This document shows positions 35,201 to 54,139 of a DNA stretch of 64,000 bases, piece by piece. Source of the DNA: a virus (Duplodnaviria > Caudoviricetes); the IMG/VR virus record IMGVR_UViG_3300035703_002708; one strand, written 5' to 3'. How positions within the stretch are numbered: position 1 is the stretch's first letter; the number at the start of each line of letters is the position of its first letter. Position numbers and translations under genes: made by a program. The notes under the pieces were generated by a model. The model worked only from the letters and a program-made list of their open reading frames with translations, searched no databases and was not told the origin of the DNA.

Positions 35201-37264
35201 TCTTTACCAACAAGTACCCCTACAAGAACTCAAACTCAGACGGCAACTGTTACCGCGACAAATACTGTTACTCCAACTGTAACAACCACAATTACAAAAA
35301 CCCCAACTCAAACTGTTACCACTACTAAGACACAAACTCAAACACCAACTGTAACAAAAACTCAAACTCAAACTCAGACGCCAACAAAAACTCAAACTCA
35401 AACACCGACAATAACAAAAACAAATACTCAAACACAAACACCTACCAAAACGGTTACATCAACACCAACTGTTACCTCAACTATTACACCATCTATAACT
35501 CAAACAAAAACACCTCCAAACACTCCTTTACCGACTAACACCCCGACTAAGACAACGACACAAACACCTACCACCACACAAACTCAAACTCAAACGTCAA
35601 CAGTAACTCAAACAGTTACTACGACACCAACTTTGACATCAACAGTAACCTCAACAGTAACACAAACAGTTACTAACACAGTTACACCGACACCAACAAA
35701 TACAGTTACACCAACGGTTACCACAACCCCAACGGTTACAAAAACCCCAACATCGACAGTTACTCAAACTATTACTAATACACAAACCGTAACATTAACT
35801 AAATCAAATACTCCGACATTAACATCAACATTCGGTAAAACTCCTTTACCGTCAAACACACCAACAAAAACTAGTACTCAAACGCCAACTGTGACCTCAA
35901 CTGTTACAACAACCCCTACAATAACTAAAACAACAACTCCAAGCCAATCTATTACTCCGACTAACACTCCTACAAGTACTTTAACTCCAACCGTAACCAA
36001 AACTGTTACTGTTTCACCAACAGTCACTATTACACCATCTATAACTCCAAGTCAAAGAGCGAGTATTTTAGCGGATGTATTGTGTAATTGTTCAGGTAAC
36101 ACAACTAGAAACATTTACGTATTCTATGATGGTTCAGGGTCTTACGAGGATTCACTATTGCAAGATGTATCTTTAAGTGTGAGGATGTGGTATTCAGGTC
36201 TTACAACAAATAGTGGTTGGACAGGTAACTTATATGAAATGGTAATTTGGGACGAGAGATGGATTTCATGGCCGATTTATCCAATAATTGGAAGTTTGTC
36301 GGGGGGTAGTGTTGGTGCCACCTATATAAGTAATGATTCTTTATTATATAGTGGTATAACAAATGATACTGTTGTTAAACAAACTATAAATAATGGATAT
36401 GAATTTGGAAATTTTGGTGTTAGCGACCCATACGGTTCTCAAGGTGTTCCATTCAATAAATCTGAACTTACAAACTTTAGTACTTCGGGTAATTTCACCC
36501 CTGAAACAGATAGTTTTATATCTATATGTGTAATTAATGAATCTTCACCTGTTTATACACAAACAGGTTCCACTTTGTCTAGTGGAAACACAGGTAATTT
36601 ACCCACAACATTCTATATAAATCAAACGGGTGTTCAGAAAGATTACAACAATTACTTGACGGCTTGGAGTTATTTCACAAATACATTAGGTAAAAACTTG
36701 AATAATTTATTATTCGTAAATCCTAACGGTAATTTGATTGAGGGATTCCAAACAATTGAAGCTCAATCATTCCAATTTATATTTGAATCTTTGGCAATAA
36801 TTGAAGGCCAAACAAGGTCGTCAAGTTATTTCTCAAATTATAACTTCAACGGAGGTGTATGGCCGAATATAAATTCTGAATTAGGTAATGATTGGACATT
36901 TGTCACATTACAAACAGTAAATCCTTTTAGTACATATACAAGTTTAACGGGATACACATCACTCAATGTGGTAAATCAGAATGGTGCGGGATTAATTAAC
37001 TTTGATTGGAGAATCGACCCAACAGTAACTGACTTCAGTTCTAACACAATTCAAAATTCATTTAATAGATTCTTCAGTGGTGATAGTAGTGAATGTTTAT
37101 ATACCGACTCACCTTTACCGCCTCTGTCTATTGGTAATGCGGTTAAATTATCGGGTATAACAGGTTGTTGGGAATATAGAGGGGTTCAAGAAAGTTCAGT
37201 AGTTAGGACACCAATTTCTGTAACGGGTTCAACATCTACCAATTGCTCTTCTTGTACTCCATGA
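32276..37264 (+). CDS. large putative virion fibre protein: LamG/ConA-like region, mucin-like Thr/Pro stalk, vWA-like domain
   Basis: LKIYVNGK...[11 protein letters not shown] (LamG-like); about 620 aa of TPT repeats; [10 protein letters not shown] carries a MIDAS-type DxSxS. Confidence 0.75.
34199..36050 (+). repeat. coding low-complexity Thr/Pro (TPT, TQT, TKT) mucin-like region
   Basis: In-frame ACN/CCN-rich tract; includes a 126-nt-offset duplication (34457 vs 34583). Confidence 0.9.
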
Positions 37265-37290: not shown

Positions 37291-40200
37291 ATGTTAACCC
37301 CTACTCCAACGACCCCACAAAATGTGTACATTCCATACGTGTTTCTTGATTGTCGTACATCAAGTTTCGAAAAAGTATTTAACATAATATACTCATCATT
37401 CAATACTGGCGATATAGTTTCCTATGACGATGGTGGTGGGTCAAAGTGTTATTTTTTGACTTCTTCAACAGGTTCTACTGTTGGTGTGCATAATTTTGAC
37501 AATCCTGAGTATACAAGTGGGGATTGTTCAACATGTATGTCAGCATATTGTGATTCGATGGCCGCATATGACTTTGTAAGTTGTTGTACAAATGATTTAG
37601 ATAACTTAATAACATACGGTATATATTTACCAAATTTTTCCGCAGGTACTGAAGTTATAGTTGACCCTGATTCGGGGGATTATTACCGTATTTATAGCGC
37701 ATCTTCAAAAGGATATTCGTATTGTTTCGAGACTCCTAATTATAATTCATGTGTTGACGCTTATATTGCAAATAATAGACTACCTGAATGTGATAGTGTA
37801 ATAGTAAGAAGAGCTTTTAATTGTTGTTCTGGTGAAACCACACAACAAATATTTGTGGCTACCAATTTGGAAAGTGGGGACACATTTTCTTTTTCGGGAC
37901 AGTGTTGGACTGTCGGTCTCACTGGTTCAACTACTCCGATAACATTAATAAGTAGTGGTGAAACCATATACTCATCTTGCACTGATTGTTTAAATCAAAC
38001 AAAATTTGTTTATAACATCTCTAATTGTAATACAAGTATTGGTTATAGACCTGTTTGTTTTAACGAAGAATTAACGGTTGGTCAGTCATATTTGATGGAT
38101 GTTTCCATTGGTACAGGGCAGACATTTTCATCAACTTGTTTTAATGTAATAGATAGAGAGGATGATTGTACTTCTTGTTTTGAGAACAATAATTATGGTC
38201 AAATTTTGTATGAGGGGTTTCCTAGTTGTAATATGTGTGTTAACGGACCTACACCTACACCAACACCAACCATAACTCAAACATCTATGGGTTATATTTT
38301 GAATCAATATTCTTTCCAAATTACAGGTTTAACCGCGAGTACTGGTTCTACTTTATTTTTGGATATTAACAATGAACCTATTTCATCAGTAACTAATAAT
38401 TCTGTGGTTATACGAATAAACTATTTGGATATTTACGGTAATAATAAAATATCTAATTATTCTTCTTTTACGGGTCTAACTGATTTATATATTAAAATCG
38501 AACAGGGGGATAGTTACGTGACATTTTTTTTATCTGACGGTAGTTTATTAGAAATCGACCCTGTTAATAATAATATTAAAATCGACGGTTATAATAACCC
38601 CACAGATGTGATATTGTTAGATTACAACCTTGGTAAATTTGACAATAGACAGTTTGTTGACATTTATTTTGGAAGTTCTGTACCAAGTGAAACCTGTTTT
38701 GGTGTAATCGACACAGTTCAGGCAACAATACCTAATGGATATGATAGAATATTAATGGATGTGGGAGATGGTGCTTTTTATGGGTTTGAACCGGCACAAT
38801 TTTTTTTGGAAAATTCTTATTTATTAAATGGTAATGGGGTTCCTGTTGCCACTTCCGAAACACCGGGTATTTGGATGGCAACTATGGGAAATCCTGGTCC
38901 TCTAAGTAGGGTTGGAGTTAAGCGGGATTTTACAGAAATCGAGGTTGTTGGTTGCAATTGGTGGGGGATTAGTAGATGTATTAATACACCCGTATCTAAA
39001 TATTATTTTATAGGTGTCAGTGGTGATAACAATTGGAGATTATATTTAGATAATCAAAAATTAGTTGACACATCATTACTTTCACCGTGCGGTCCATCAC
39101 AATCAGGCGTTGTGGGTTGTGCATCATCGTTCTCCCTACCGGATTATCCGTTCGAAAGGTGGAGGGTTTACCAAGTTTTTTTGGAGGCCGGTTTCCATGT
39201 TATACAGGTAGTTAATCAAGATTGTAACGGTACCACAAGTTTAGGGTTTGAAATATATGATAATACTCTTGAGGAGTTATTAGGTGCTCAACAGTTAACT
39301 GATTTGAATATATTATTCACAACTAAGTTTTATAGAGATTTAATTGAAACTGGGGCGACTTTGTTTTTTGATGTTGTTATAAACAGGCAAACTAATCAAT
39401 ACACACAGAACGGTTATGGTTGTCCAAGTGGTTATACATACGGTTGTGGAAATTGCTATACATTTGGTAACATACCTTGCCCGACAATTACCCCGACTAA
39501 CACCCCTACAATAACCCCGAGTCCGACTATTACCCCAACCCAAACACCCACTAAAACTCTGACACCAACAAGAACACCGACACCAACACCGACCAAGAGA
39601 CCGATGATGTGTTTTGAGGTTGGTACCGATTATGCACCCTTTACAGGTGCTTGCTCAGAATTTAGTTCTGGTTCTATAAATGGTAAACCATATTGGTATC
39701 TACCCACCATAACTTGTGTTCATAATCAAATTTATAGGGTCGTGTGGAGTATAGTTAATAATAGGTGGGAACTAATAGATGGTAGTAATGTTGTATATTT
39801 TTACTTAAACTCACAATCAGAATACCCGGTTAGTACTCTTGCTAATCCGTGGGTTCGGATTGCGCCATTAGTCCCTCAAATGACAACATTCCCTATATCG
39901 TCTTCAATAGGGTTATGTGGGGCACCATCATTCAATATTGAACTACAACTATCCGACCCTTGGAGTGCGGTTACAGGAACAACATCGATTCTTGATAATT
40001 TTGGTGAGACTATTTTAGATATAAATGGGACTGACCTTCAAATTATCGGTAGTACAGTTGATATAAAGTATACTGGAGGTACGGTCGCGGAATGGGATAG
40101 ATTCGATGATTTAGTCAAATATACAGGGTCCACAGGAAAATATTTTTCAATACAACAGGATTCGTCATATGTAGTTTTTTTCATATCAGGCAGTTCTATA

Positions 40201-41217
40201 TTCTCATTAGACAGTGTTTCTAGAACTTTTAGTATGGATGGTGTAACATATAAAGACCAAATTATTATAGTTGATTCTGGTAACACGTCATTCATAAGCG
40301 GAAAAACGGTCAACATTAGTTTCGATTCTTATTACCCTAATATTGTTTATCCAACACCAACCCCAACTAAAACCAATCCAAGACCACCACTACCAACCTC
40401 AACTCCGACTAAGACAATAAAACCAACAACAACACCAACTAAAACTATAACTCAGACTAAAACTCCAACTAAGACTATAAATGTAACAAAAACTCCTGAC
40501 TCTACAAATTTACCAACTTCTACACCAACTAAGACAATAAAACCAACATCTACACCAACCAAAACTGTAACGCAAACAAAAACACAAACAAGTACAATAA
40601 AACAAACTTCTACACCAAAATCAACCAATATACCGACTAACACACCAACCAAAACTGTTAGACCGTCTCAAACTCCAACTAAAACAAATACACCGACAAG
40701 AACTCAAACCTCAACACCAAAGTCAAGTAATACACCACAAAAAACTAACTTACCAACATCTACCCCTACAAAAACTAAAACATTAACTCCAAGTCGTACT
40801 TTTACCGGTGTCACAATAACACCAACGGTAACTAAAACCAAAACCCCAACCAAAAGTGTTGCTCAGACTCAGTTACCTTCTAACACTCCAACAAAAACGG
40901 TTACCCCGACCAAATGTTGTAGCGGATGGAATTTGTATGGTGGAACAATGTGTGACTTCGTAGCTTTCCAAGTGCAAGGATGTAATGGAACTACATACAT
41001 AAAAGACATGAAGAGATTTCAAACCGATGTTGTTTGTGCTTATAATGTGACAATTTTATCACAAGGATGTAGTGCGTCCGCTTATGTGTCAAGTCAATGC
41101 AGTTGTCCTTCACCTACACCAACAAATACGCAGACACCAACACCCACATTAACCAAAACCCCAAAATCAACTCCTTTACCAACAGGTACACCAACTAAAA
41201 CACCAACAAAATCTTAA
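37291..41217 (+). CDS. large putative virion protein: Cys-rich modules, PA14-like domain, duplicated beta domain, Thr/Pro/Lys stalk
   Basis: CC...C...CxxC modules; GVSGDNNWRLYLDNQKLV...LEAGFHVIQV (PA14-like); YIKIEQGDSYVTFFLSDG vs YFSIQQDSSYVVFFISGS duplication; LPTSTPTKT repeats. Confidence 0.7.
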   Translation: MLTPTPTTPQNVYIPYVFLDCRTSSFEKVFNIIYSSFNTGDIVSYDDGGGSKCYFLTSSTGSTVGVHNFDNPEYTSGDCSTCMSAYCDSMAAYDFVSCCTNDLDNLITYGIYLPNFSAGTEVIVDPDSGDYYRIYSASSKGYSYCFETPNYNSCVDAYIANNRLPECDSVIVRRAFNCCSGETTQQIFVATNLESGDTFSFSGQCWTVGLTGSTTPITLISSGETIYSSCTDCLNQTKFVYNISNCNTSIGYRPVCFNEELTVGQSYLMDVSIGTGQTFSSTCFNVIDREDDCTSCFENNNYGQILYEGFPSCNMCVNGPTPTPTPTITQTSMGYILNQYSFQITGLTASTGSTLFLDINNEPISSVTNNSVVIRINYLDIYGNNKISNYSSFTGLTDLYIKIEQGDSYVTFFLSDGSLLEIDPVNNNIKIDGYNNPTDVILLDYNLGKFDNRQFVDIYFGSSVPSETCFGVIDTVQATIPNGYDRILMDVGDGAFYGFEPAQFFLENSYLLNGNGVPVATSETPGIWMATMGNPGPLSRVGVKRDFTEIEVVGCNWWGISRCINTPVSKYYFIGVSGDNNWRLYLDNQKLVDTSLLSPCGPSQSGVVGCASSFSLPDYPFERWRVYQVFLEAGFHVIQVVNQDCNGTTSLGFEIYDNTLEELLGAQQLTDLNILFTTKFYRDLIETGATLFFDVVINRQTNQYTQNGYGCPSGYTYGCGNCYTFGNIPCPTITPTNTPTITPSPTITPTQTPTKTLTPTRTPTPTPTKRPMMCFEVGTDYAPFTGACSEFSSGSINGKPYWYLPTITCVHNQIYRVVWSIVNNRWELIDGSNVVYFYLNSQSEYPVSTLANPWVRIAPLVPQMTTFPISSSIGLCGAPSFNIELQLSDPWSAVTGTTSILDNFGETILDINGTDLQIIGSTVDIKYTGGTVAEWDRFDDLVKYTGSTGKYFSIQQDSSYVVFFISGSSIFSLDSVSRTFSMDGVTYKDQIIIVDSGNTSFISGKTVNISFDSYYPNIVYPTPTPTKTNPRPPLPTSTPTKTIKPTTTPTKTITQTKTPTKTINVTKTPDSTNLPTSTPTKTIKPTSTPTKTVTQTKTQTSTIKQTSTPKSTNIPTNTPTKTVRPSQTPTKTNTPTRTQTSTPKSSNTPQKTNLPTSTPTKTKTLTPSRTFTGVTITPTVTKTKTPTKSVAQTQLPSNTPTKTVTPTKCCSGWNLYGGTMCDFVAFQVQGCNGTTYIKDMKRFQTDVVCAYNVTILSQGCSASAYVSSQCSCPSPTPTNTQTPTPTLTKTPKSTPLPTGTPTKTPTKS

Positions 41218-41566: not shown

Positions 41567-44500
41567 ATGTGTGAATTAATATTGACTGGTCTTACATATA
41601 GTTGTGGACCTTACACAATAGATTTATGTGATTGTCAAGGTGGTAATTGTATTAAGATTATTGTCACACCCGACGTTGGAAATCTAACGGGTACAATCAC
41701 ATATCCTGATGGTTCTTCAGAAACCTATGAAAATGGTATTATTGATATTAATATACCAGAGGGGTATTCTGAGGACGATTGTATTATATTCACAGTTTTC
41801 AATAGCGATGGTGAACCCGTTGTTGACAAACCTGAACCACCAAATTTTAGTCAAACACCAACGCCAGGTTTAACACCCACACCAACCAAAACAATCAACT
41901 ACGTAGAACCTCCTAGACCCGGTGGAGGTGGCCCTGGTATTGTATTGGATTTTCCTTCACAGACCCCAACACTAACCCCAACTCCTTCGCCGGCAACCCC
42001 AACCCCTACAGTAAGTCTAACTAACACCCCAACAGTTACAGTCACTACGACATTAACTCAGACTATGACTGTAACCCCGACCGTTACTCCAACACCTTTA
42101 ACCCCAAATTTAGGATTCAGTTCTTGTTGTGACAATAGTTTTTTTTCATTAAAAGAGGAAACTCAATTTATTTCCACTTTAGACCCAACAAAAACATATT
42201 ACATTCAAACCAATGAATTTGTAGGATGTGTTACAATAGTAAGTCAAAGACCGACAGATTTTTTTGAATTTATATCTATAAGTTCGGGATATGTTGATTG
42301 TGTCGATTGTTTATCGGCAACAACTGGAAACAATTTTTGTCCGACCCAAACTCCAACGCCAACAATAACAATCACACCAACGAGACCAATTAAGGCATTC
42401 AAAGATTGTTGTGAAAACATATACATAGGTTTAACTGAAGAGTCTGAATTATTATATTCTTTAGACCCAAATAAGTCTTATTATTTGGTCACTGATGGGT
42501 ATTCAGGTTGTACAACTATAGTTAATGAACAACCAACCTTATATTATAATTTTGTATCTATTTTAGAATACAATGATTGTGATTTATGTAGGATAGATAA
42601 AGTGGGGGTAATATGTCCTTCACCAACACCAACCGTAACTTCAACCCCTACTGTTACACCTACGGTAACACCTACTATAACATCAACCCCAACTATAACA
42701 CCGACAATTACTCCAACTTTTGTAGAAAAGTTTTGTTATGAGTTAAGTGCTTGTACCACAAACCTTGTTTATAGTGGTTGTTCTCCCTTATCTCTTAATT
42801 TAGATAAAACTTATCAAATACTTTTAGATATTGACGAGGGTAGTCGAAACACCAAACTACAAACAGGTACAGGATTTAATGGTTCTGTATTTACAGTTGA
42901 ATATCAAAACGATAACAAAATACTTGTTGGTGGTAACTTTAGCCAATATAACGGCCTGTCAACGTCAAATGAGATAATAAGACTAAACCAAGATGGTTCG
43001 ATTGACAATACATTTAACTATGCCGGCCCATCATATGTCTATATAAATGATATTGTCGAACAAAATGATGGTAAAATCCTTGTAGGGTTAGGTCAAGTTT
43101 TTGGTAATAGCGGTAATATACTACAAAGACTAAATTCAGACGGGTCACTCGATGGTACATTTACGCCACTGACGTGTCCGAACGGAGGTGCAATTTCAAA
43201 AATATTAATACTACCCGATAGTACAATTGTAATTGGAGGAACATTTAATAACCCAAACTCCACATTCTTCCATAAATTAATAAGACTTTTTCCTGATGGT
43301 AGTGTTGACCCATTTTTTGGGACTGGTGGTTTTTTACCTAATTTAGGTGTCGAATCTGTTTATGATGTTGATGTTTTGAGTGATGGTACACTGATATGTG
43401 TCGGTTCATTTTCTGAGTACAAATTTATATCAGCAAACAAAATTGTTCCGATTTTACCTAACGGAACTATAAATGTTGGTTTTTCATATGGGTCAGGATT
43501 TGATGACGATGTTTACGCTGTAAAAGTATTAAACGACGACTCAATTCTTGTGGGTGGTAAATTTACCCAATACAATGGAACATCATCAAGTTGTGTTATA
43601 AAATTACTTTCCGATGGTTCAATAGATACGTCTTTTGTTGTTGGTAGTGGTTTTTCTGGTGGAGTTGTTTATGACATAACAGTAGATACTTCAGGTGATT
43701 ACATATTCGTTGGAGATTTTACTGATTATAAAAATCAAACGGCTAATGGAATTATAAAATTAGATTCTAATGGAGATATTGTAACAACCTTTGTTACTGG
43801 AATTGGATTAGACAATACAGGATATAAAATTGATGTTAATTCTGACGGTTCTGAAATTATAGTTGGAGGTATATTCTCAAGTTACAATAATTGTGTTAAT
43901 AACAATTTAGTATCAATTATAAACTCGGTTACAAGTGTAACCGATTGTTTTACGATTATTAATAGTGGGTCATGTTCTTGTTGTCAAAACACTATAGTTA
44001 GTGCAAGTACCGAATACATAAATTGTAATGATTGTTTAGTATTAACACCAACACCGACACCAACACCGACAATAACACCAACAAATACTAAGACGCAGAC
44101 TATTACACCTACAATATCTGTAACCAAAACTGTAACAAGAACATTAAACCCAACAAGAACCCCAACACATACACCAACTCCTACCGTTACACCAACTAAT
44201 CTTATTCCAATATTCTCATCTTGTTGCGGAACCATTAATATCCAATTCACCGACCCTAACGTTGCGTTAGGTTTAACAATTGGTGAGTTTTATTTCGTTG
44301 AGGCCGATTCATACTCTGCCTGTACACTACTAACGTTGGGTTATCCTAACCTTATTTTGGATACTGCAACAGGTGTTACAACAGTTACTGATTGTGTAAC
44401 TTGTATTACCGATTATCTTCCAAGTGGTATTTGTCCGACCCCTACACAAACACCAACAAGTACACTAACTCCAACCCCAACTATATTACCAATCGTTTTG

Positions 44501-47500
44501 AGTTCTTGTTGTGGTAATTTTTTGATTGATGTCTCAGACCAAGTTGAATTACTTGAAACATTAAGCCAATATACTGAAACAACGTTTTTATTTACATCTG
44601 ATGACGGATTTAGTGCGTGTACAAGTTTGGCAAGAGCAGTACCTAACACATTATTTAATTTCACATCATTTAGGGTTTTTATAGATTGTGATGCTTGTAA
44701 TACATTTTTAAATGGTACAGTGGTTTGTCCGACGCAGACGCCAACCCCAACAGAAACTAAAACATCTACGCCAACTTTAACGCCGACAATTACTCCAACA
44801 ATAACTGTAACAAATACCAAAACACCTACAATTACACCAACAATAACAATAACAAGTTCAATTACACCCACTGAAACACCAACATCGACCGTAACTACAA
44901 CTCAAACACCAACAAACACTCAGACTCCAACCGTAACGAAAACCCCTTTGGCGTCACCTCAAGAAACAAGGACTCCTACCCCTACGCCTACTATAACCCC
45001 AACTGAAACACCAACTCAAACTGTAACACCTACTATCACAAATACTCAAACAGTAACAACAACAGAAACACCAACTCAGACTCCTACTATAACAGTTACC
45101 AAAACTGAAACTCCAACAAATACACCAACAGTAACCACAACTATTACCAATACCGCAACTCAAACACTAACCGTAACTAACACGATAACACCAACAGAGA
45201 CTGTCACACCAACAGTTTCACCAACTAACACACCATCAATTTCTGCTACATTGACACCTGGTGTTACCAAAACCCCAACAAGAACAGAAACACCAACTCA
45301 GACTCCTACCAATACAATAACACCAACCATCACACAAACCCCAACACAGACCAAAACCCCAACACAGACACAAACACCAACCAAAACAGAAACACCAACA
45401 GTAACCGCAACAAAAACCCCAACAAAAACACAGACGCCAACCATTACTCCCACAGTTACTCCAACTATTAGTGTAACGCCAACAATAACTCAAACACAAA
45501 TTCAATTTTGTCCTGATTGTGATATAACTGGTAACACTTATTTGGATGGTGTAACACTTACACCAACTGTGACAAGTACAATAACCCCGACAATAACACA
45601 AACATCGACTGTAACACCAACTGTAACACTAACGAACTCAGTAACACCGACTCAAACACAGACAAACACTCAAACGCCTACAATAACCCCAACCACTACT
45701 CTAACACCCACAATAACACCCACAATAACACAAACCCCAACAATAACTCAAACACAGATTCAATTCTGCCCTGACTGTGACATAAGTGGAAACACATACT
45801 TGGATGGAGTTACCCTAACACCAACAGTTACAGGTACTATAACACCTACTATAACTCCAACAAATACTCAAACACCATCAAAAACCCCTACTAAGACCCC
45901 AACTCAAACAAAAACACCTACTAAAACTCAAACACCAACAATAACCCCGACTAAGACCCCAACCCAAACAAAAACCCCTACTAAAACTCCAACCCAAACA
46001 AAAACCCCTACTAAAACTCCCACCCCAACAATAACTCCAACAAAAACAGAAACCCCCACGGTTACTCCCACAAAAACACCAACTAAATCTGTAACACCAA
46101 CAATAACCCCAACCCAAACCCAAACACCAACAGTAACGCCAACAATAACTCAAACACAAATTCAATTTTGTCCTGATTGTGATATAACAGGTAACACTTA
46201 TTTAGATGGGGTAACTTTAACACCTACCGTAACAAGTACTGTAACACCATCTATTTCTCCAACCGCAACAATAACACCGACTATAACTACGACAAAAACT
46301 GTTACACCAACTAGTACACCAACGACATCTGTATCACCATCACTTACTCCAACAACATCAGTATCACCTTCGTTAACACCAACTAATACACAGACTCCTA
46401 CTATAACACAAACACAAATTCAATTCTGTCCTGATTGTGATATAAGTGGTAATACATACTTGGATGGTGTGACGTTAACTCCTACAGTCACAAGTACTGT
46501 AACACCGTCAATTACACCAACAAATACTAAAACACCAACAATAACACCCACCAAAACCAAAACCCCTACCATAACCCCAACAAAAACGGTTACTAATAGT
46601 CAAACACCAACCAAGACCGTTACTAACACCCCAACACAAACCCCAACCCTGACAAGAACACCAAACGAGGCTTGTCCTGATTGTGATATAACCGGTAACA
46701 CATATTTAGATGGAGTAACACTCACTCCAACTGTTACTAGCACAATAACACCATCAATATCACCAACTAGTACAATAACACCATCAATATCACCAACTAG
46801 TACTATAACACCTACCGTAACCCCTACTACGTCAATATCTCCTTCATTAACACCAACAACATCTATATCGCCTTCCCTAACCCCTACACAAACTGTAACA
46901 CCAACCATCACCCAAACTCAAATTTCAACTTGCCCTGATTGTGACATTAGTGGTAACACGTATTTAGATGGAGTAACTTTAACACCTACGGTTACAAGTA
47001 CAATAACTCCATCCATTACCCCAACAACAAGTGTAACACCTACAATAACCCAAACTACTACTATAACACCAACAATTACACCTACAAAAACCCAAACACC
47101 AACAATAACCCCGACAATAACAAAAACACCTACTCAAATTGCGTCATGCCCTGATTGTGATATAACAGGTAACACTTATTTAGATGGTGTAACTTTAACT
47201 CCTACAGTTACATCAACCATAACACCATCGATATCGCCAACCCCAACAGTAACCCCATCAATATCACCAACGTCATCAGTTACTCCTACAGTAACTCCAA
47301 CAACATCAATTTCTCCTTCCTTAACTCCAACAACATCAATTTCTCCTTCCTTAACACCTACGAATACTCAAACACCTACAATAACCAAAACTCAAATTTC
47401 AACTTGCCCTGATTGTGACATTAGTGGCAATACATACTTAGATGGAGTAACTTTAACGCCTACCGTTACAAGTACAGTTACGCCATCGATAACACTAACT

Positions 47501-50500
47501 TCAACTATAACTCCGTCTATTTCTCCAACATCAACTAAAACTCCAACAATAACACCAACCAAAACTCAAACTCCTACTATAACTCCAACTATAACAAAAA
47601 CACCAACTCAAATTGCCGCTTGTCCTGATTGTGATATAACAGGTAACACTTATTTAGATGGAGTAACTTTAACTCCTACGGTTACTAGTACAGTGACTCC
47701 ATCAATCACGCCTACATCAAGTATAACACCTTCAATTTCTCCAACAAAAACTCAAACACCAACAATAACACCAACTACATCGGTATCTCCATCTTTAACA
47801 CCAACATTATCGGTTTCACCGTCATTGACACCTAATGTAACCGTGACACCAACAATTACTCAAACACAAATTCAATTTTGTCCCGATTGTGATATCAGTG
47901 GAAATACATATTTGGACGGAGTCACATTGACTCCAACTGTAACGAGCACAATCACACCATCTTTTACACCAACACAAAGCCAAACTCCAACTGTAACACC
48001 TACAGTTACTACCACAAAAACACCAACTCAAACACAAACACCAACTATAACTCCAACTATAACGCAAACTCCAACTATAACTCCAACTATAACTCAAACT
48101 CAAGTATCATCGTGTCCTGACTGCGATATAACAGGAAACACGTATCTGGATGGTGTAACATTAACCCCAACAGTTACAAGTTCATTAACCCCTTCAATAA
48201 CACCAACATCCTCGGTAACACCAACCAATACTCAAACACCAACAATTACGCCTACTATAACACCGACACAAACTATTACGCCTACTATAACACCGACAAC
48301 GTCAATATCACCATCTTTAACGCCAACTAATACACAAACACCAACAATAACCAAAACTCAAATACAGTTCTGTCCTGATTGTGACATAAGTGGTAATACT
48401 TATTTGGATGGTGTAACTCTGACACCAACAGTCACTTCGACTATTACACCAACAAAAACCCCAACACCAACTAGACCCCAATTAACTTTCAGCGGATGTG
48501 ATGATGTTTTTTCAGGGCAATCATTTAACTTTAGTGGTTTTGGAATGGATTTCACCACGATTTATGATTTAAACCCTTCACTAATATATTCTTTCTCCGC
48601 AAATGGTATTGTGGGATGTTTTAGAATTGTCGAAGGGTTCACTCAAACGTACTATTACCTGACTTCAAACACTGGACAAACTTTTTCAACATGTGGAATA
48701 TGTTCCGAAAATAACCCCATTGAGTCTCAATACCCTGTCATACAACTTTGTCAGTGTAGTGGTTTTACAAATTGTATTTGGTCTAACGGAGATTTTACCT
48801 TCAATACGACAATATTATTTGGGGTGTCTAATCAAATTGGTTGTTGGAAAATGATTTCTACCGCAACAACAACCACTACGGCGGGATATGATGTTCCGAC
48901 AGGACAAACCTACGATAACTGTGTTGAATGTGAAAGTGGTTCGATAAACAGAGTCTTCAGTTCGTGTTGTGGTAATTATGTATTTAATATCGCCGAACCA
49001 CTACAAGGTATTATAGATAATTTATTTTTCGAAAAAATATACGAAATCAATACAGAAGAATTTTCAGGGTGTGCTAGAGTTGTAAGCGGGTTTTCAGAAA
49101 ATAATTATAATTTGACTTCATTAGATACTAATGAATATTTTGATACATGTTTGGATTGTTTAACCGCAACAACAGGTTCTAACATTTGTCCGACATTAAC
49201 ACCAACACCGACAGAAACACCAACACAAACCCCAACTACAACAATAACACCGACCGAGACTGTAACACCAACAATAACACCGACCGAGACTGTAACGCCA
49301 ACACAAACTCCTACCATTACACCGACTAATACTCAAACACCTACAATAACTCAAACAGAAACACCTACTCAGACTCCCACACCTACAGAAACAAAAACAC
49401 CAACTCCAACTCAAACGCCAACAATAACACCAACAATCACTCAAACACCGACTCAAACACCGACTCAAACACCAACACCTACTATAACACCAACGAAAGA
49501 ACCTGATTACGAAGTTTGGGAATTTAGGGATTGTTGTACAGAAACCGATTCGAAATATTACAGAGTATACAATTATCCAAGTGTGGTTTTGGACTCAGTC
49601 GCCCTTTCGGGTGTTTCAGCGCTTTACGATTATGGACTCACATACGTTGATTATAATAATTCCATATATGTGATTGCATCTTTTAACTTAAACGTTGTGG
49701 ATACAAGTACAAACACTCTGACACAAGTTATAGACTTCGGGAATGCGGTTGTGTCACCAACCTATTCTCCTGAAAACCAAAAATTATATGTTAGTGAATA
49801 CGCAATAGATAGATTAGTAGTTGTTGACGTTACCACTAATACTACGGCTTCAACAATCAATGTCGGTACTTACCCTGCGGTGTTATACTACAATTCAACT
49901 TATGAAAAGTTATACACACTAAATTTAAATTCAAATGACGTAACTGTTGTTGATACTACATCAGACACTGTACTCATAAACGTTAGTGTTAGCGGTTCAC
50001 CTATTAGTTATGTTTATAACCAAGACAACGAGTACTTATATATCTTCCACACAAATAGTAATTACGTTTCTGTTATTGACACTTTTGACGACAGTATTGT
50101 AACAACCATTAATTTGGGAGCTCAATGTGACTCTGGTATATATGACCCTACAAATCAACGCATTTATTGTTGGGGTTGGGGTGATGGTAATTACGTTAAA
50201 GTTATCAATACAAATACAAACACATTTTCAAACACAATAACGACAACATTACTCCCTTACAATAGACAATCACAAATAGTCGGAAATTACTTGTATATTC
50301 CTTGTAATTTAGGGATTGAAGTAATTGAACTTTCAAGTCAAACGTCATATACCTCAATAGTTGTTCCAGTGGGTTCGGTCGAACAAATAATCCTAAACCC
50401 AACCAACGGATATTTGTATGTAACCTTTACAAACTTAGGAGTTGTTATTATAGACCCATCGTCAAACGAAATAATCCAAACAAACACTAGTTTTTTAACC

Positions 50501-53500
50501 TCAGGATATTACATACCACAAACAGGTTATATATATTATAACGGTACGAATCCAAGTCCACAATTACAAGTTGTGGGTGAAATTTTCAGGTCTTGGAATG
50601 TAGGAGATGTTGTGAACGACTTATCAAACGGACAATGTTATTCTGCGTACCAATTGGTTTCACCATCGACACCATACTCACAAAATGTTTCAATTACATC
50701 TTACACCGATTGCTGGTCTTGTGTCCAAGCGATAGGTTGTCCTTTCATTTTCGAGGATTGTCAATCAGGAACAACACAATTTACAATTAATGTGATACCA
50801 ACAGGTCAAACACCTCAGTACGGAACAAATTACTCTTATGAATTAGTTTCAGGGGACACAACAGTTACCGCATATGGTGGAGACTCAGGAAATGAGGCGT
50901 GTTTGTTTTTCACAGAAATACCAACTTTGGGAATAGTTTCTATATATCCAGTATCACCAATCCAAAACCCCCTAATTGGAGATTGTATAACTTGTGAAAC
51001 ATCCTACCCAAGTTACCCAACACGAGCCAAATTTACAGATTGTTGCACTCAAACTGAAGAAATATATTTTAATATAAATTACCCAAGTATTCAGTGGATG
51101 ATAGGAGATGTTGTGTTATACACCATACCAAACAGTGATACAAAAAAATGTTACGAATTAATTGAATTTGATACTTTTAATACGTTCCCTGCTGGTGTAT
51201 GGAATTTCAATGACCCCGACTATAAGGGCTCACCATACAACTGTGAAAAATGTTTTGCCTTTAACAAATGTGAATGTCAAGAAGTTTTCACACCATATGA
51301 CTTTTTAAGTTGTTGTGACAATTCTACAATACTTGTTATGGGTATTTTACCTGAAAACTTTGTTTTAGGAAATGTGGTTATGTATGAAGGAGTACCATAC
51401 TCGATGATTGGTCCTTCAGTAAATCCGATTGATGGTGGTTGTTTTGCAGTTTTTGATTACGTTGACTGTACTGCGGCAAATAATGAGGAGGTTAATCCTT
51501 GCGGATTTAGTTTAGGTCAGTACGAATATTGTTGTAACACTTCTGAGATTATTGAAGTGTGGGAACCAGGTTATACAAACTCAAGTTATACAAACTTTTT
51601 ATATAATAATAAATGTTGGAATAGACGTGGTAATGGAGCAGGAACAACAGGCGAAACTATTTTTTGGACAGGATACACTTCGTGTGAAGAGTGTTATCCA
51701 AATTCAATAGGATATGTTTTAAGTTCTTGTACAATAGACGGTTTGACAATCACAGCACAAACTTCTGATTACAGTACATTGAATGTTAATAGTTTTTACA
51801 ATTTCACATCAGGAATTACTGATACTTTTTATTACGATTCAACATTTGTTTATGGTACAGGTTTTGGTTATACAGGTTCCTCTGTTGGTCAAGTAAATGA
51901 TATAATTTATTATCCACCAAAAGATGACCTATTCTTCGGTGGTATTTTCAACTCATATGATGGCACATCTGTAAATAACTATGCAAGAATCGACAATCTT
52001 GGAAATTTTGTTGGACTATTTGATGCAACTGGTTTAAATACTGGAGATACTTCCTTTATAAGTCAAATCGGAATTCAATCCAATGAAAAACTTATTGTTG
52101 TTGGTAATTTTACATCCTACAGTAGTAATAATGTTGGAAGAATAGTTAGGACTAATTCTGAGGGTGCTTATGACAACACATTTTCAGGTGACACTGGTTT
52201 TAACAATTTAGTTATCGATATTGCAATAAACAATTCAGACCAAATATATTGTGCGGGGGTCTTTTCAACGTATAGAAGTTTTTCGGCCATAGGATTAGCG
52301 AGATTAGGTCCTGACGGTATTTTTGACACAGGATTTACTTCTCATTTCACTTCCGCCACAAACCTAAAAATCAGAGAAATAGAAGTCCAAACTGATAATA
52401 AATTGATAGTTGTGGGGGACATTCCTAATTTATATAGTGGAATTACTTTCGGACCAATTAGAAGATTGAATTCTGATGGTAGTATAGATTTTTCTTTCTC
52501 TGGAACTGTTAGTGGCTTTGGTGGTTCTATTGCTTCGGTAGAAATACAAAATGATGGAAAAATAGTGTGTGGTGGTAATTTTACGACGGCAAACGCACAA
52601 ACCTTGTCAGGTATGGTTAGGTTTACAAGTGGTGGCACTGTTGATAATACCTTTAATGCTCAATCATGGATTTCGACCTATAACATAGAATCCATTTCAA
52701 AAATTAAACTTTTAGAAGACGGTAAATTTTTGGTATATGGTGGGGACTTAAGTCTCAATCGGTATGTGTTTTATATCGGAACTAATGGAGAGTTATTACA
52801 AACAATACAAATCAATGGAGGTGGTGTCTCTGATATAGAAAATTTATTACCTGGCAGTGGAAGATACGTCTTAGGTGGTAACTTTACAGGAGTAACGATA
52901 AATAGTGTTTCATACAGCGCCAATAGTGTATTTGCAATTGAACGTGTGGTTGAAAATTGTTTTAAAGTCATTGATACCGTAACTGGTTGTACTGCATCTG
53001 AGGCAACAATAGTAGTTGCGGGTACTGAATATGCTTCATGTGCAAGTTGTTTGATACCTCCTACAATGACACCAACACCAACTCAGACACCGACAATAAC
53101 TCCAACTAAAACACCAAGTCCAACACCAACACAGACTAAAACTCCTACGCAAACCCCAACTCAGACTCCAACTCAGACCCCTACGCAGACACAAACACCT
53201 ACCGAAACGCCGACACAAACGCCAACACAGACCCCTACTCAAACTCCTACTCAAACTCCTACTCAAACACAGACACCAACACAAACACAGACACCAACAC
53301 CGAGTAGATTCCCTGACTGTGTTGATTGTGAATTATCAGGACTTTCATATTATTCTGGTTACAGTGATTGTACATGTTATTCAATAACTATGACCACTCT
53401 TGCCGCGGTATTTGCGTACAACTGTTACGGAGTGTATACAGTAATTCTAACATCAGGAACATATTGTTTAAGAGAAATAGTTGACTCAAATGGAAATACA

Positions 53501-54139
53501 GTGATATCTCAAGGGTCATGTGAATCAGGTGTATGTGCTTCACCTACACCAACGCCAACACAGACACCAACGCCAACAATGACACCTAGTAAAACTCCTC
53601 CAATTACACCAACACCAACAAAGTTATGTTGTGCACCAACAATAACTAATGTAGACTTCGGAACCAATACAATTAGAAACTTCGATTGGATGGATGTGTT
53701 TTACACACAAGGATGTGGGTTAGCGGACGGATATATAGTGACACTACAAACAGCAAACGCTAGTTACATTTACAATGTACCCACACCAAATCCTGAAGGT
53801 TATTTCAGAGTTAATTACGTGGCATCAAGAGGTGGAATAATCTCAATTACAAAAGTCTGCGATAACGGAGCACTTTTGGTTTCTAACCAATATTATGTCG
53901 GTAAACCAGGGTCATCATTCCTACTCGTAAGATGGACAAGGTGCCCAAGTTTCGGAACTTCTATACCTTTCTATACATACGTTTACTCTAATGTACAACA
54001 GTCCCCATCTCCTAGTTCGATATACACACCATCAGGTAACCCACTTAATGGTGTTTACACCAGTGCCACTACGTTAAACGAAGGACCTATTGATAGATAC
54101 CTAAATGGTACATACTGGCAATCAGGTTCGTGCCCATAA
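41567..54139 (+). CDS. giant (4190 aa) putative virion fibre/adhesin: about 14 Cys-rich modules, two Delta-60-type and one YVTN-type beta-propellers, long Thr/Pro/Ser stalk
   Basis: QNDNKILVGGNF...IIRLNQDGSIDNTF repeats (about 42850-43920 and 51840-52940); TINVGTYP..LYYNS..EKLYTLN.NSNDVTVVDT repeats (49583-50593); TPT tracts. Confidence 0.8.
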   Translation: MCELILTGLTYSCGPYTIDLCDCQGGNCIKIIVTPDVGNLTGTITYPDGSSETYENGIIDINIPEGYSEDDCIIFTVFNSDGEPVVDKPEPPNFSQTPTPGLTPTPTKTINYVEPPRPGGGGPGIVLDFPSQTPTLTPTPSPATPTPTVSLTNTPTVTVTTTLTQTMTVTPTVTPTPLTPNLGFSSCCDNSFFSLKEETQFISTLDPTKTYYIQTNEFVGCVTIVSQRPTDFFEFISISSGYVDCVDCLSATTGNNFCPTQTPTPTITITPTRPIKAFKDCCENIYIGLTEESELLYSLDPNKSYYLVTDGYSGCTTIVNEQPTLYYNFVSILEYNDCDLCRIDKVGVICPSPTPTVTSTPTVTPTVTPTITSTPTITPTITPTFVEKFCYELSACTTNLVYSGCSPLSLNLDKTYQILLDIDEGSRNTKLQTGTGFNGSVFTVEYQNDNKILVGGNFSQYNGLSTSNEIIRLNQDGSIDNTFNYAGPSYVYINDIVEQNDGKILVGLGQVFGNSGNILQRLNSDGSLDGTFTPLTCPNGGAISKILILPDSTIVIGGTFNNPNSTFFHKLIRLFPDGSVDPFFGTGGFLPNLGVESVYDVDVLSDGTLICVGSFSEYKFISANKIVPILPNGTINVGFSYGSGFDDDVYAVKVLNDDSILVGGKFTQYNGTSSSCVIKLLSDGSIDTSFVVGSGFSGGVVYDITVDTSGDYIFVGDFTDYKNQTANGIIKLDSNGDIVTTFVTGIGLDNTGYKIDVNSDGSEIIVGGIFSSYNNCVNNNLVSIINSVTSVTDCFTIINSGSCSCCQNTIVSASTEYINCNDCLVLTPTPTPTPTITPTNTKTQTITPTISVTKTVTRTLNPTRTPTHTPTPTVTPTNLIPIFSSCCGTINIQFTDPNVALGLTIGEFYFVEADSYSACTLLTLGYPNLILDTATGVTTVTDCVTCITDYLPSGICPTPTQTPTSTLTPTPTILPIVLSSCCGNFLIDVSDQVELLETLSQYTETTFLFTSDDGFSACTSLARAVPNTLFNFTSFRVFIDCDACNTFLNGTVVCPTQTPTPTETKTSTPTLTPTITPTITVTNTKTPTITPTITITSSITPTETPTSTVTTTQTPTNTQTPTVTKTPLASPQETRTPTPTPTITPTETPTQTVTPTITNTQTVTTTETPTQTPTITVTKTETPTNTPTVTTTITNTATQTLTVTNTITPTETVTPTVSPTNTPSISATLTPGVTKTPTRTETPTQTPTNTITPTITQTPTQTKTPTQTQTPTKTETPTVTATKTPTKTQTPTITPTVTPTISVTPTITQTQIQFCPDCDITGNTYLDGVTLTPTVTSTITPTITQTSTVTPTVTLTNSVTPTQTQTNTQTPTITPTTTLTPTITPTITQTPTITQTQIQFCPDCDISGNTYLDGVTLTPTVTGTITPTITPTNTQTPSKTPTKTPTQTKTPTKTQTPTITPTKTPTQTKTPTKTPTQTKTPTKTPTPTITPTKTETPTVTPTKTPTKSVTPTITPTQTQTPTVTPTITQTQIQFCPDCDITGNTYLDGVTLTPTVTSTVTPSISPTATITPTITTTKTVTPTSTPTTSVSPSLTPTTSVSPSLTPTNTQTPTITQTQIQFCPDCDISGNTYLDGVTLTPTVTSTVTPSITPTNTKTPTITPTKTKTPTITPTKTVTNSQTPTKTVTNTPTQTPTLTRTPNEACPDCDITGNTYLDGVTLTPTVTSTITPSISPTSTITPSISPTSTITPTVTPTTSISPSLTPTTSISPSLTPTQTVTPTITQTQISTCPDCDISGNTYLDGVTLTPTVTSTITPSITPTTSVTPTITQTTTITPTITPTKTQTPTITPTITKTPTQIASCPDCDITGNTYLDGVTLTPTVTSTITPSISPTPTVTPSISPTSSVTPTVTPTTSISPSLTPTTSISPSLTPTNTQTPTITKTQISTCPDCDISGNTYLDGVTLTPTVTSTVTPSITLTSTITPSISPTSTKTPTITPTKTQTPTITPTITKTPTQIAACPDCDITGNTYLDGVTLTPTVTSTVTPSITPTSSITPSISPTKTQTPTITPTTSVSPSLTPTLSVSPSLTPNVTVTPTITQTQIQFCPDCDISGNTYLDGVTLTPTVTSTITPSFTPTQSQTPTVTPTVTTTKTPTQTQTPTITPTITQTPTITPTITQTQVSSCPDCDITGNTYLDGVTLTPTVTSSLTPSITPTSSVTPTNTQTPTITPTITPTQTITPTITPTTSISPSLTPTNTQTPTITKTQIQFCPDCDISGNTYLDGVTLTPTVTSTITPTKTPTPTRPQLTFSGCDDVFSGQSFNFSGFGMDFTTIYDLNPSLIYSFSANGIVGCFRIVEGFTQTYYYLTSNTGQTFSTCGICSENNPIESQYPVIQLCQCSGFTNCIWSNGDFTFNTTILFGVSNQIGCWKMISTATTTTTAGYDVPTGQTYDNCVECESGSINRVFSSCCGNYVFNIAEPLQGIIDNLFFEKIYEINTEEFSGCARVVSGFSENNYNLTSLDTNEYFDTCLDCLTATTGSNICPTLTPTPTETPTQTPTTTITPTETVTPTITPTETVTPTQTPTITPTNTQTPTITQTETPTQTPTPTETKTPTPTQTPTITPTITQTPTQTPTQTPTPTITPTKEPDYEVWEFRDCCTETDSKYYRVYNYPSVVLDSVALSGVSALYDYGLTYVDYNNSIYVIASFNLNVVDTSTNTLTQVIDFGNAVVSPTYSPENQKLYVSEYAIDRLVVVDVTTNTTASTINVGTYPAVLYYNSTYEKLYTLNLNSNDVTVVDTTSDTVLINVSVSGSPISYVYNQDNEYLYIFHTNSNYVSVIDTFDDSIVTTINLGAQCDSGIYDPTNQRIYCWGWGDGNYVKVINTNTNTFSNTITTTLLPYNRQSQIVGNYLYIPCNLGIEVIELSSQTSYTSIVVPVGSVEQIILNPTNGYLYVTFTNLGVVIIDPSSNEIIQTNTSFLTSGYYIPQTGYIYYNGTNPSPQLQVVGEIFRSWNVGDVVNDLSNGQCYSAYQLVSPSTPYSQNVSITSYTDCWSCVQAIGCPFIFEDCQSGTTQFTINVIPTGQTPQYGTNYSYELVSGDTTVTAYGGDSGNEACLFFTEIPTLGIVSIYPVSPIQNPLIGDCITCETSYPSYPTRAKFTDCCTQTEEIYFNINYPSIQWMIGDVVLYTIPNSDTKKCYELIEFDTFNTFPAGVWNFNDPDYKGSPYNCEKCFAFNKCECQEVFTPYDFLSCCDNSTILVMGILPENFVLGNVVMYEGVPYSMIGPSVNPIDGGCFAVFDYVDCTAANNEEVNPCGFSLGQYEYCCNTSEIIEVWEPGYTNSSYTNFLYNNKCWNRRGNGAGTTGETIFWTGYTSCEECYPNSIGYVLSSCTIDGLTITAQTSDYSTLNVNSFYNFTSGITDTFYYDSTFVYGTGFGYTGSSVGQVNDIIYYPPKDDLFFGGIFNSYDGTSVNNYARIDNLGNFVGLFDATGLNTGDTSFISQIGIQSNEKLIVVGNFTSYSSNNVGRIVRTNSEGAYDNTFSGDTGFNNLVIDIAINNSDQIYCAGVFSTYRSFSAIGLARLGPDGIFDTGFTSHFTSATNLKIREIEVQTDNKLIVVGDIPNLYSGITFGPIRRLNSDGSIDFSFSGTVSGFGGSIASVEIQNDGKIVCGGNFTTANAQTLSGMVRFTSGGTVDNTFNAQSWISTYNIESISKIKLLEDGKFLVYGGDLSLNRYVFYIGTNGELLQTIQINGGGVSDIENLLPGSGRYVLGGNFTGVTINSVSYSANSVFAIERVVENCFKVIDTVTGCTASEATIVVAGTEYASCASCLIPPTMTPTPTQTPTITPTKTPSPTPTQTKTPTQTPTQTPTQTPTQTQTPTETPTQTPTQTPTQTPTQTPTQTQTPTQTQTPTPSRFPDCVDCELSGLSYYSGYSDCTCYSITMTTLAAVFAYNCYGVYTVILTSGTYCLREIVDSNGNTVISQGSCESGVCASPTPTPTQTPTPTMTPSKTPPITPTPTKLCCAPTITNVDFGTNTIRNFDWMDVFYTQGCGLADGYIVTLQTANASYIYNVPTPNPEGYFRVNYVASRGGIISITKVCDNGALLVSNQYYVGKPGSSFLLVRWTRCPSFGTSIPFYTYVYSNVQQSPSPSSIYTPSGNPLNGVYTSATTLNEGPIDRYLNGTYWQSGSCP
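45509..48430 (+). repeat. 12 in-frame copies of CPDCDI(T/S)GNTYLDGVTLTPTVT separated by Thr/Pro/Ser linkers
   Basis: First Cys codons at 45509, 45767, 46169, 46427, 46673, 46931, 47147, 47405, 47621, 47879, 48113 and 48371. Confidence 0.95.

Follow-up and report, generated by a model that had tools for sequence, protein, structure and literature searches.

A twelve-copy cysteine motif array in a giant Thr/Pro-linked protein of a freshwater jumbo phage: six two-motif units with a possibly length-conserved inner spacer

Linkers rich in Thr and Pro are usually taken as passive spacers of free length, and the locus described here raises the question of whether such a linker can be held at one exact length by selection, or whether a regular spacing of this kind records only how a repeat was copied. 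The locus lies in a stretch of viral DNA of 64,000 nucleotides (nt) (IMG/VR record IMGVR_UViG_3300035703_002708; Duplodnaviria, Caudoviricetes), the whole of which was analysed and is called the window below, and whose source is a freshwater jumbo phage. It consists of 12 copies of a 22-residue motif, CPDCDI[T/S]GNTYLDGVTLTPTVT, in an open reading frame (ORF) of 4190 amino acids (aa) that runs as a single uninterrupted frame from 41567 to 54139 on the + strand. The best overall explanation of the array (45509-48436, +) would be six old two-motif units with a length-conserving inner spacer and drifting outer spacers, a reading to which we give an even chance. Its parts are not of equal strength: the anatomy, the common descent of the units and the selection acting on the motif are well established, the length lock is suggestive, and any ruler or knot mechanism is conjecture.

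A regular-expression scan of the 4190-aa ORF placed the motif starts at nt 45509, 45767, 46169, 46427, 46673, 46931, 47147, 47405, 47621, 47879, 48113 and 48371, with the residue after CPDCDI alternating between Thr and Ser in strict order across 12/12 copies (T-motifs and S-motifs hereafter). From each T-motif to the next S-motif the interval is 258 nt in six of six cases (86 aa from start to start, with a linker of 64 residues), and the intervals from S to T are 402, 246, 216, 216 and 234 nt. The strict alternation and both sets of intervals had been claimed in an earlier note on this DNA, and all were confirmed by our scan; the end of the array, which that note put at 48430, had to be moved to 48436, where the last motif ends. 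Tandem Repeats Finder, run independently, gave periods of 474 nt (46670-48426) and 258 nt (45475-45948).

Two kinds of linker separate the motifs, those within the T-S units (L1 to L6) and those from S to the next T (M1 to M5). Both classes are built of 10-residue sub-repeats in which Pro keeps a fixed register, and are composed of 31-47 % Thr and 12-19 % Pro. The S-to-T linkers are richer in Lys (23/328 residues vs 4/384 in the T-to-S linkers), whereas the latter are richer in Ser (61/384 vs 20/328), and the decad PTTS[IV]SPSLT occurs twice in each of L2-L5, once in L6 and not at all in L1. The earlier note's remarks that several linkers share PTTSISPSLT and that the S-to-T linkers are more Lys-rich and indel-prone hold; the latter class has at least 3-5 indels and the T-to-S class none. 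On the + strand, unit 1 (45509-45832; T-motif, L1, S-motif, with motif starts 258 nt apart) is followed by M1 (45833-46168, 112 aa), which carries a recent 30-nt repeat expansion at 45879-46047. Unit 2 (46169-46492; T2, L2, S2) and M2 (46493-46672, 60 aa) lead to unit 3 (46673-46996; T3, L3, S3), in which L3 contains 2.6 copies of a 30-nt unit of 95 % identity (46736-46812) with its net length unchanged. M3 (46997-47146, 50 aa) precedes unit 4 (47147-47470; T4, L4, S4), whose two SPSL decads show no difference in a window of 30 nt, and M4 (47471-47620, 50 aa) precedes unit 5 (47621-47944; T5, L5, S5). Last come M5 (47945-48112, 56 aa) and unit 6 (48113-48436; T6, L6, S6), where L6, with one SPSL decad and a 30-nt duplicate of 93 % identity (48236-48298), nonetheless has 64 aa.

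A 56-nt exact repeat (copy 1, 45473-45528; copy 2, 46133-46188; +) probably arose when T1 and T2 underwent conversion in register, not long ago. It had been described as the only exact DNA match in the array, and while the match is real it is not the sole one, given that matches of 38-42 nt were also found among T2, T4 and T5 and between the flanks upstream of S3 and S4. All of these exact matches (38-56 nt) join like positions only, and never a T-motif with an S-motif. Taken with the strict order, the two linker kinds (Ser-rich with SPSL decads vs Lys-rich) and the 474-nt period, they support well the proposal that a two-motif unit was duplicated to give six.

Where the motif itself came from is suggested by its relatives. 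Cognate motifs were found in related IMG/VR viral contigs (L002, L007, L013-L021 and L143-L150), always inside the Thr/Pro linkers of giant proteins, in three forms: F-C-V-D-C-V-E-S-G-Y-T-Y-V-F-x-C-A-P, C-I-D-C-S-E-S-G-Y-T-Y-I-F-D-C, and a form with two Cys, C-I-D-C-[GN]-V-S-G-Y-T-Y-I-I-S. The features that define this mini-motif, namely CxDC, [ST]-G at +3/+4 and [ST]-Y-hydrophobic within a Thr/Pro linker, were all found, and an alignment of 15 copies from four sources gave the consensus C-x-D-C-x-x-[S/T]-G-x-[S/T]-Y-hydrophobic, with C8, D10, C11, G15 and Y18 invariant. The motif is too short for statistical homology, and its putative kinship with these cognates is based on the shared context and on shared modules: the proteins that bear them have a six-Cys module, here called SSCC, and other modules in common with the 4190-aa protein. 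A divergent thirteenth copy (CVDCELSGLSYY..., aa 3918; 53318-53383, +) stands in the 4190-aa protein itself, joined directly to a C-terminal CxC module. At the corresponding place the number of copies is one in L002 and L007, two in L013 and 12 here; the two cognates of L013 (8287-8655, - strand of that contig) are 91 aa apart and both have Ser, and the pair may represent the state of the array before its amplification. The linkers that follow the motif in these relatives vary freely in length. The contigs in question reach 322 kilobases (kb), and one of the relatives adjoins a phage DNA primase gene.

None of the collections searched yielded a homologue that carries an array. A peptide-pattern search of IMG/VR with the T-S unit returned low-complexity matches and the three-Cys cognate only, and degenerate DNA patterns in the same collection found the cognates and no array. 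A word search of 5.8 billion proteins with residues 1290-2300 gave 120 Thr/Pro-rich matches with the motif in none of them, and a profile search of 1.84 billion representative proteins gave no match at E <= 0.001. Among the matches listed by a metagenome scan there were single chance matches only, the GTDB species genomes held 26 single matches, which is about the chance level, and megablast against a GenBank collection of phages found nothing. The globular part 3' of the array has no close relative in IMG/VR, and the 4190-aa protein itself is apparently missing from the collections of proteins.

When the 22 core codons are compared among the 12 copies, every difference is synonymous except for that between Thr (ACN) and Ser (AGT). 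The mean pairwise synonymous divergence (pS) of the core is 0.69, which is saturated, and by position it is 0.52 for T-T, 0.72 for T-S and 0.79 for S-S pairs, all at saturated sites. With synonymous sites saturated and the peptide the same apart from T/S, as the earlier note had perceived, it follows that the copies are old and that each has been kept intact; judged by its codons, the motif is under strong purifying selection. All the cognates and the thirteenth copy have Ser before the Gly, and therefore Thr is the derived state. On the face of these sequences, the strict alternation of T and S needs no selection, as block amplification of a T+S pair would suffice to create it. Moreover, a neutral switch between the two would take one specific transversion, of which well under one is expected in 12 copies at the nonsynonymous rates seen in the linkers, so that the absence of switches says little.

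The history that we propose is that of a higher-order tandem repeat of old date, lying in the stalk of a giant phage protein with Thr/Pro linkers, in which each 22-residue copy would be this phage's own form of a mini-module that related jumbo phages also have. Ser would be ancestral, one member of an early pair would have switched to Thr, and the T+S pair would then have been amplified to six units, which would yield the strict order by descent alone. Since that amplification the synonymous sites would have become saturated while the peptide stayed constant, as if every copy were functionally needed. The segment made of a T-motif, 64 residues and an S-motif would behave as a module of fixed length, accepting substitutions and the in-place homogenisation of its 10-residue sub-repeats but not net indels, and the S-to-T segments would be ordinary Thr/Pro linkers tolerant of indels. 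The motif would be a small turn or hairpin, stapled by its Cys residues, by which the stalk is punctuated.

Whether the inner spacer is in fact locked in length is the most delicate point. The T-to-S linkers are 64 aa in six of six units, whereas the S-to-T linkers measure 112, 60, 50, 50 and 56 aa, and alignment with MAFFT placed no gap in the former, at the protein or the nucleotide level, and at least 3-5 events in the latter. The two classes are equally diverged by substitution (pS 0.63 and nonsynonymous divergence, pN, 0.20 in T-to-S; pS 0.59 and pN 0.19 in S-to-T) and differ only in indels. If the hazard of an indel is set proportional to length (384 vs 250 residues), the probability that all of k events fall in the S-to-T class is 0.39^k, that is, 0.06 at k = 3 and 0.009 at k = 5. 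An empirical rate can be taken from the orthologous Thr/Pro linkers of the related phages, in which each pair differs by about 1.2-1.3 gap runs per 64 aa at a fourfold-site divergence of 0.55-0.59; applied to the six unit copies, whose relationship is near-star-like (61-77 % nucleotide identity), this rate predicts about 3.7 events and gives a probability of about 0.02 of seeing none. Pairs of equal length make up 15/15 of the T-to-S comparisons, 1/10 of the S-to-T comparisons and 9/25 of the linker blocks of the relatives. Taken together, these three rough tests of length place p at about 0.01-0.08. In L3, L4 and L6, furthermore, adjacent 30-nt units are 93-100 % identical, a sign of recent homogenisation, and the length is still 64 aa, while similarly pure recent repeats in M1 and M5 accompany an altered length. 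The interior of L1 is 54-67 % identical to the other linkers, which is the baseline for in-phase Thr/Pro sequence (maximum 0.67), yet it too is 64 aa long. As read from these alignments, the contrast in indels between the two classes is suggestive of selection on length, and the chance that the T-to-S length is truly constrained would be about one half. The proposal of selection on spacer length, made before our analysis, is plausible, and no more than that, at these values of p.

Several considerations weigh against a locked spacer. The sample is of six copies, related by descent, and at the minimum count of three S-to-T indels the partition test yields p = 0.06. Gene conversion, whether in register or shifted, can homogenise sub-repeats at constant length, and therefore the seemingly compensated sub-repeats would need no selection; a comparison of the decads one by one at the nucleotide level gave a background identity of 50-70 %, at which the orthology of sub-repeats is not assignable. 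Part of the length variation in the S-to-T linkers could be scars of the amplification junctions. The lone relative with two copies has them 91 aa apart and not 86, and to our knowledge there is no physical reason for an exact length in a flexible glycosylated spacer. A cause at the DNA level for the 258 nt was also considered and was rejected for want of support.

These points make the strongest alternative that of duplication history alone, in which the motif is selected and the spacer length is not, the T-to-S linkers lack indels by chance, and the S-to-T differences stem from junctions and from slippage in purer repeats. We regard this as a serious contender whose probability falls somewhat short of even. 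The small sample, with p just 0.06 at the minimum of three events, speaks in its favour, as do the position of the M1 expansion within an unusually pure 30-nt repeat, the pairwise equality in length of 9 of the 25 linker blocks in relatives and the different spacing in the two-copy relative. What it does not readily accommodate is that T-to-S pairs are without exception equal in length, and S-to-T pairs nearly always unequal, at the same substitution divergence; that very pure 30-nt repeats, which are substrates for slippage, occur in the T-to-S linkers without any alteration of length; and that the indels predicted from related linkers were not observed at all.

Structural comparison was uninformative on what the motif does: AlphaFold2 modelled the T-S unit with a mean predicted local distance difference test (pLDDT) score of only 41.6, a PDB profile search returned nothing below E = 1 and Pfam likewise nothing similar, and a feature search of the ESM Atlas found weak clusters of viral hypothetical proteins only, below 0.9. 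Aligned by hhalign to the C-x-x-C...C-P-T tail of the SSCC module, the motif matched in eight columns around the CxxC only, with a probability of 2.4 %. In order, its conserved pattern is a hydrophobic residue, CxDC, two intervening residues, Ser/Thr followed by Gly, one further residue, Thr-Tyr and another hydrophobic residue, which would suit a small turn or a hairpin held by a staple. A calcium loop of the EF-hand-like type, D-x-[ST]-x-N-x-Y-L-D, was rejected: the array reads D-I-[TS]-G-N-T-Y-L-D, and the relatives read V-E-S-G-Y-T-Y-V-F at that place. Conceivably, a length-locked unit would set Cys-stapled sites, for docking, cross-linking or glycan attachment, at a fixed distance on a glycosylated phage fibre so as to match a periodic partner such as the capsid lattice, a layer of the host surface or a second chain. 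Such an array would be a ruler of low complexity, a kind that is not known from phage proteins, and we consider this reading unlikely. The metal or disulfide knots that the earlier note proposed for registering chains or docking partners are conjecture, a structural knot or cross-link being one candidate role of the motif.

Two other accounts of the motif appear less probable still. In the first, which we rate as doubtful, the motif is mainly a modification site, the Ser/Thr-Gly, preceded by acidic residues and carried on a CxxC-stapled turn, being the acceptor for a dedicated glycan of the flanking glycosyltransferases, and the product would be a bottle-brush, proteoglycan-like fibre. The lone variable position is always Ser or Thr with Gly next to it in all variants, the Asp found two residues ahead of the second Cys never varies, the motif resembles the acidic Ser-Gly consensus of proteoglycan xylosylation, and many glycosyltransferase genes adjoin; but Ser-Gly may merely form a tight turn, and the fixed spacing is left unexplained. 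The second, less probable again, is that the T and S motifs of a unit pair with each other, so that two CPxC knuckles share one Zn or exchange disulfides and close six 64-residue loops, the closure of the loop fixing its length. Rubredoxin and zinc-ribbon sites classically have CPxC as their knuckle, the motifs of the array are paired, and the constraint lies within the pair and not between pairs. Such knuckles would however be 86 residues apart instead of 10-30, an exact length is not needed for a flexible loop, and the single motifs with two or three Cys in the relatives argue that pairing is not the general mode of the family. In the array as a whole, neighbouring CxxC motifs are 72-134 aa apart across low-complexity linker, unlike in the compact folds of zinc ribbons and rubredoxin.

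The reality of the array was assessed in public sequencing data. Contigs from four freshwater runs, belonging to four studies, supplied pieces covering T1-S1, S2-T3, S3-T4 and T5-S5-T6 that are identical to the window and include no indel variant, in a set where most of the joints and loose ends are Thr/Pro DNA of other organisms. The exact match in four independent runs means that the array is not an artefact of assembly, and the identity of the pieces to the window also means that the strain is geographically widespread; the segment 48500-53500 occurs whole or in part in 20 public runs from 12 studies, nearly all freshwater. That the array nevertheless arose from assembly or annotation, whether by collapse or chimerism of repeats or as a tract of low complexity that does not code, is barely credible, for although repeats assemble poorly and a Logan contig of another run stops just short of it, the intervals across the motifs are matched exactly in all four runs, the ORF is open for 12.5 kb in AT-rich DNA, and codon changes in the core are essentially all synonymous. 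Exact-protein look-ups with genes next to the array turned up a single contig, whose end falls short of it. The Logan contig (L178), from an independent short-read assembly, carries an identical copy of the upstream 1308-aa gene and ends at aa 1278 of the 4190-aa ORF, 37 codons before motif 1, a break that shows how arrays of this kind drop out of assemblies and protein databases.

As for its setting, the 4190-aa protein is made of small Cys-rich modules and beta-propellers with long Thr/Pro linkers between them, and DUF5122 propeller repeats are its sole match in Pfam. It is probably on the virion surface and, judging only by the neighbouring glycosyltransferase genes, probably O-glycosylated, given that the giant genes are flanked on both sides by clusters of such genes (GT60-like, GT10-like and GT2); an endolysin-like gene is also present in the window. 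The SSCC module, of about 80 aa, recurs at 42116-42352, 42398-42628, 44213-44446, 44498-44740 and 48956-49201 (aa 184-262, 278-354, 883-960, 978-1058 and 2464-2545) and was also seen in the related phage contigs. AlphaFold2 reached a pLDDT of 81 in one of five models of this module, which has no significant fold match in the PDB, and many of its weak matches are double-psi beta-barrels (the p97 N domain, formate dehydrogenase, cerato-platanin and kiwellin). Upstream lie two further giant genes of similar architecture, which encode proteins of 1662 aa (32276-37264, +) and 1308 aa (37291-41217, +), both matching phrog_15511, whose function is unassigned. In the former, a Thr/Pro stalk of some 700 aa leads to a domain that bears a DGSGS (vWA/MIDAS-like) motif, and the latter has a domain common to the L002, L007 and L013 proteins. 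Over 34000-36000 and 44000-50000 the GC skew is strongly negative (to -0.63) and the AT skew positive, exactly over the stretches that code for Thr/Pro, because of their ACN and CCN codons and not as a replication signal. Antisense ORFs of 93-121 aa within the array (45236-45601, 45878-46165, 46600-46911 and 47822-48103, all -) were rejected as genes, being most likely a by-product of the AC-rich sense strand.

If the inner spacer is truly conserved in length, it would mean that selection can act on spacer length as such within a stalk that is disordered and probably glycosylated, and the array would offer a natural system for studying what sets distances along phage surface fibres. Should the invariance be a historical accident, the finding would shrink to a tidy higher-order repeat, of an ordinary sort, in a phage protein of mucin-like build. 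The 22-residue motif, together with its cognates in other freshwater jumbo phages, is an element of giant phage proteins that is strongly constrained and had not been described, and it is a candidate metal, disulfide or modification site.

Among known systems, the tip of the T4 long tail fibre has HxH iron sites, and phage tape measures are helical rulers of length. The likeness to these is only in the idea of periodic metal or cross-link sites, or of a distance encoded as length; there is no homology, and the array is Thr/Pro-rich whereas tape measures are helical. Periscope proteins, SasG/Aap and Rib are bacterial surface stalks of fixed-length tandem repeats that project functional domains. 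Periscope-type repeats, however, fold as domains, are nearly identical in their DNA and vary in copy number, while in the phage array synonymous sites are saturated and the part of fixed length is a low-complexity linker. The jumbo-phage cognates share the core C-x-D-C-x-x-S-G-x-T-Y-hydrophobic, the Thr/Pro linker setting and the Cys-rich modules, but they occur once, or twice at 91 aa, often have a third Cys, and lack a T variant, an array and a conserved linker length. The closest analogy in architecture would be the gel-forming mucins (MUC2, MUC5AC/B), whose Pro/Thr/Ser (PTS) tandem-repeat regions are interrupted by CysD domains (PMC3195396). Like these, the phage protein has a long and repetitive Pro/Thr/Ser stalk, presumably O-glycosylated and prone to indels, with conserved Cys elements at intervals, and its linkers, with their 10-aa period, are Thr/Ser/Pro-rich tandem repeats as in a mucin-type PTS region. 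The elements themselves are different, given that the mucin CysD has about 100 aa and ten Cys and the phage element is viral, has 22 aa and two Cys, does not belong to the CysD family and, unlike CysD, has no sequence or profile similarity to a Pfam or PDB entry. The strict higher-order unit of two motifs with a fixed spacer between them belongs to the phage array only and is not a feature of mucins, and it is in this respect a new twist on a mucin-like architecture.

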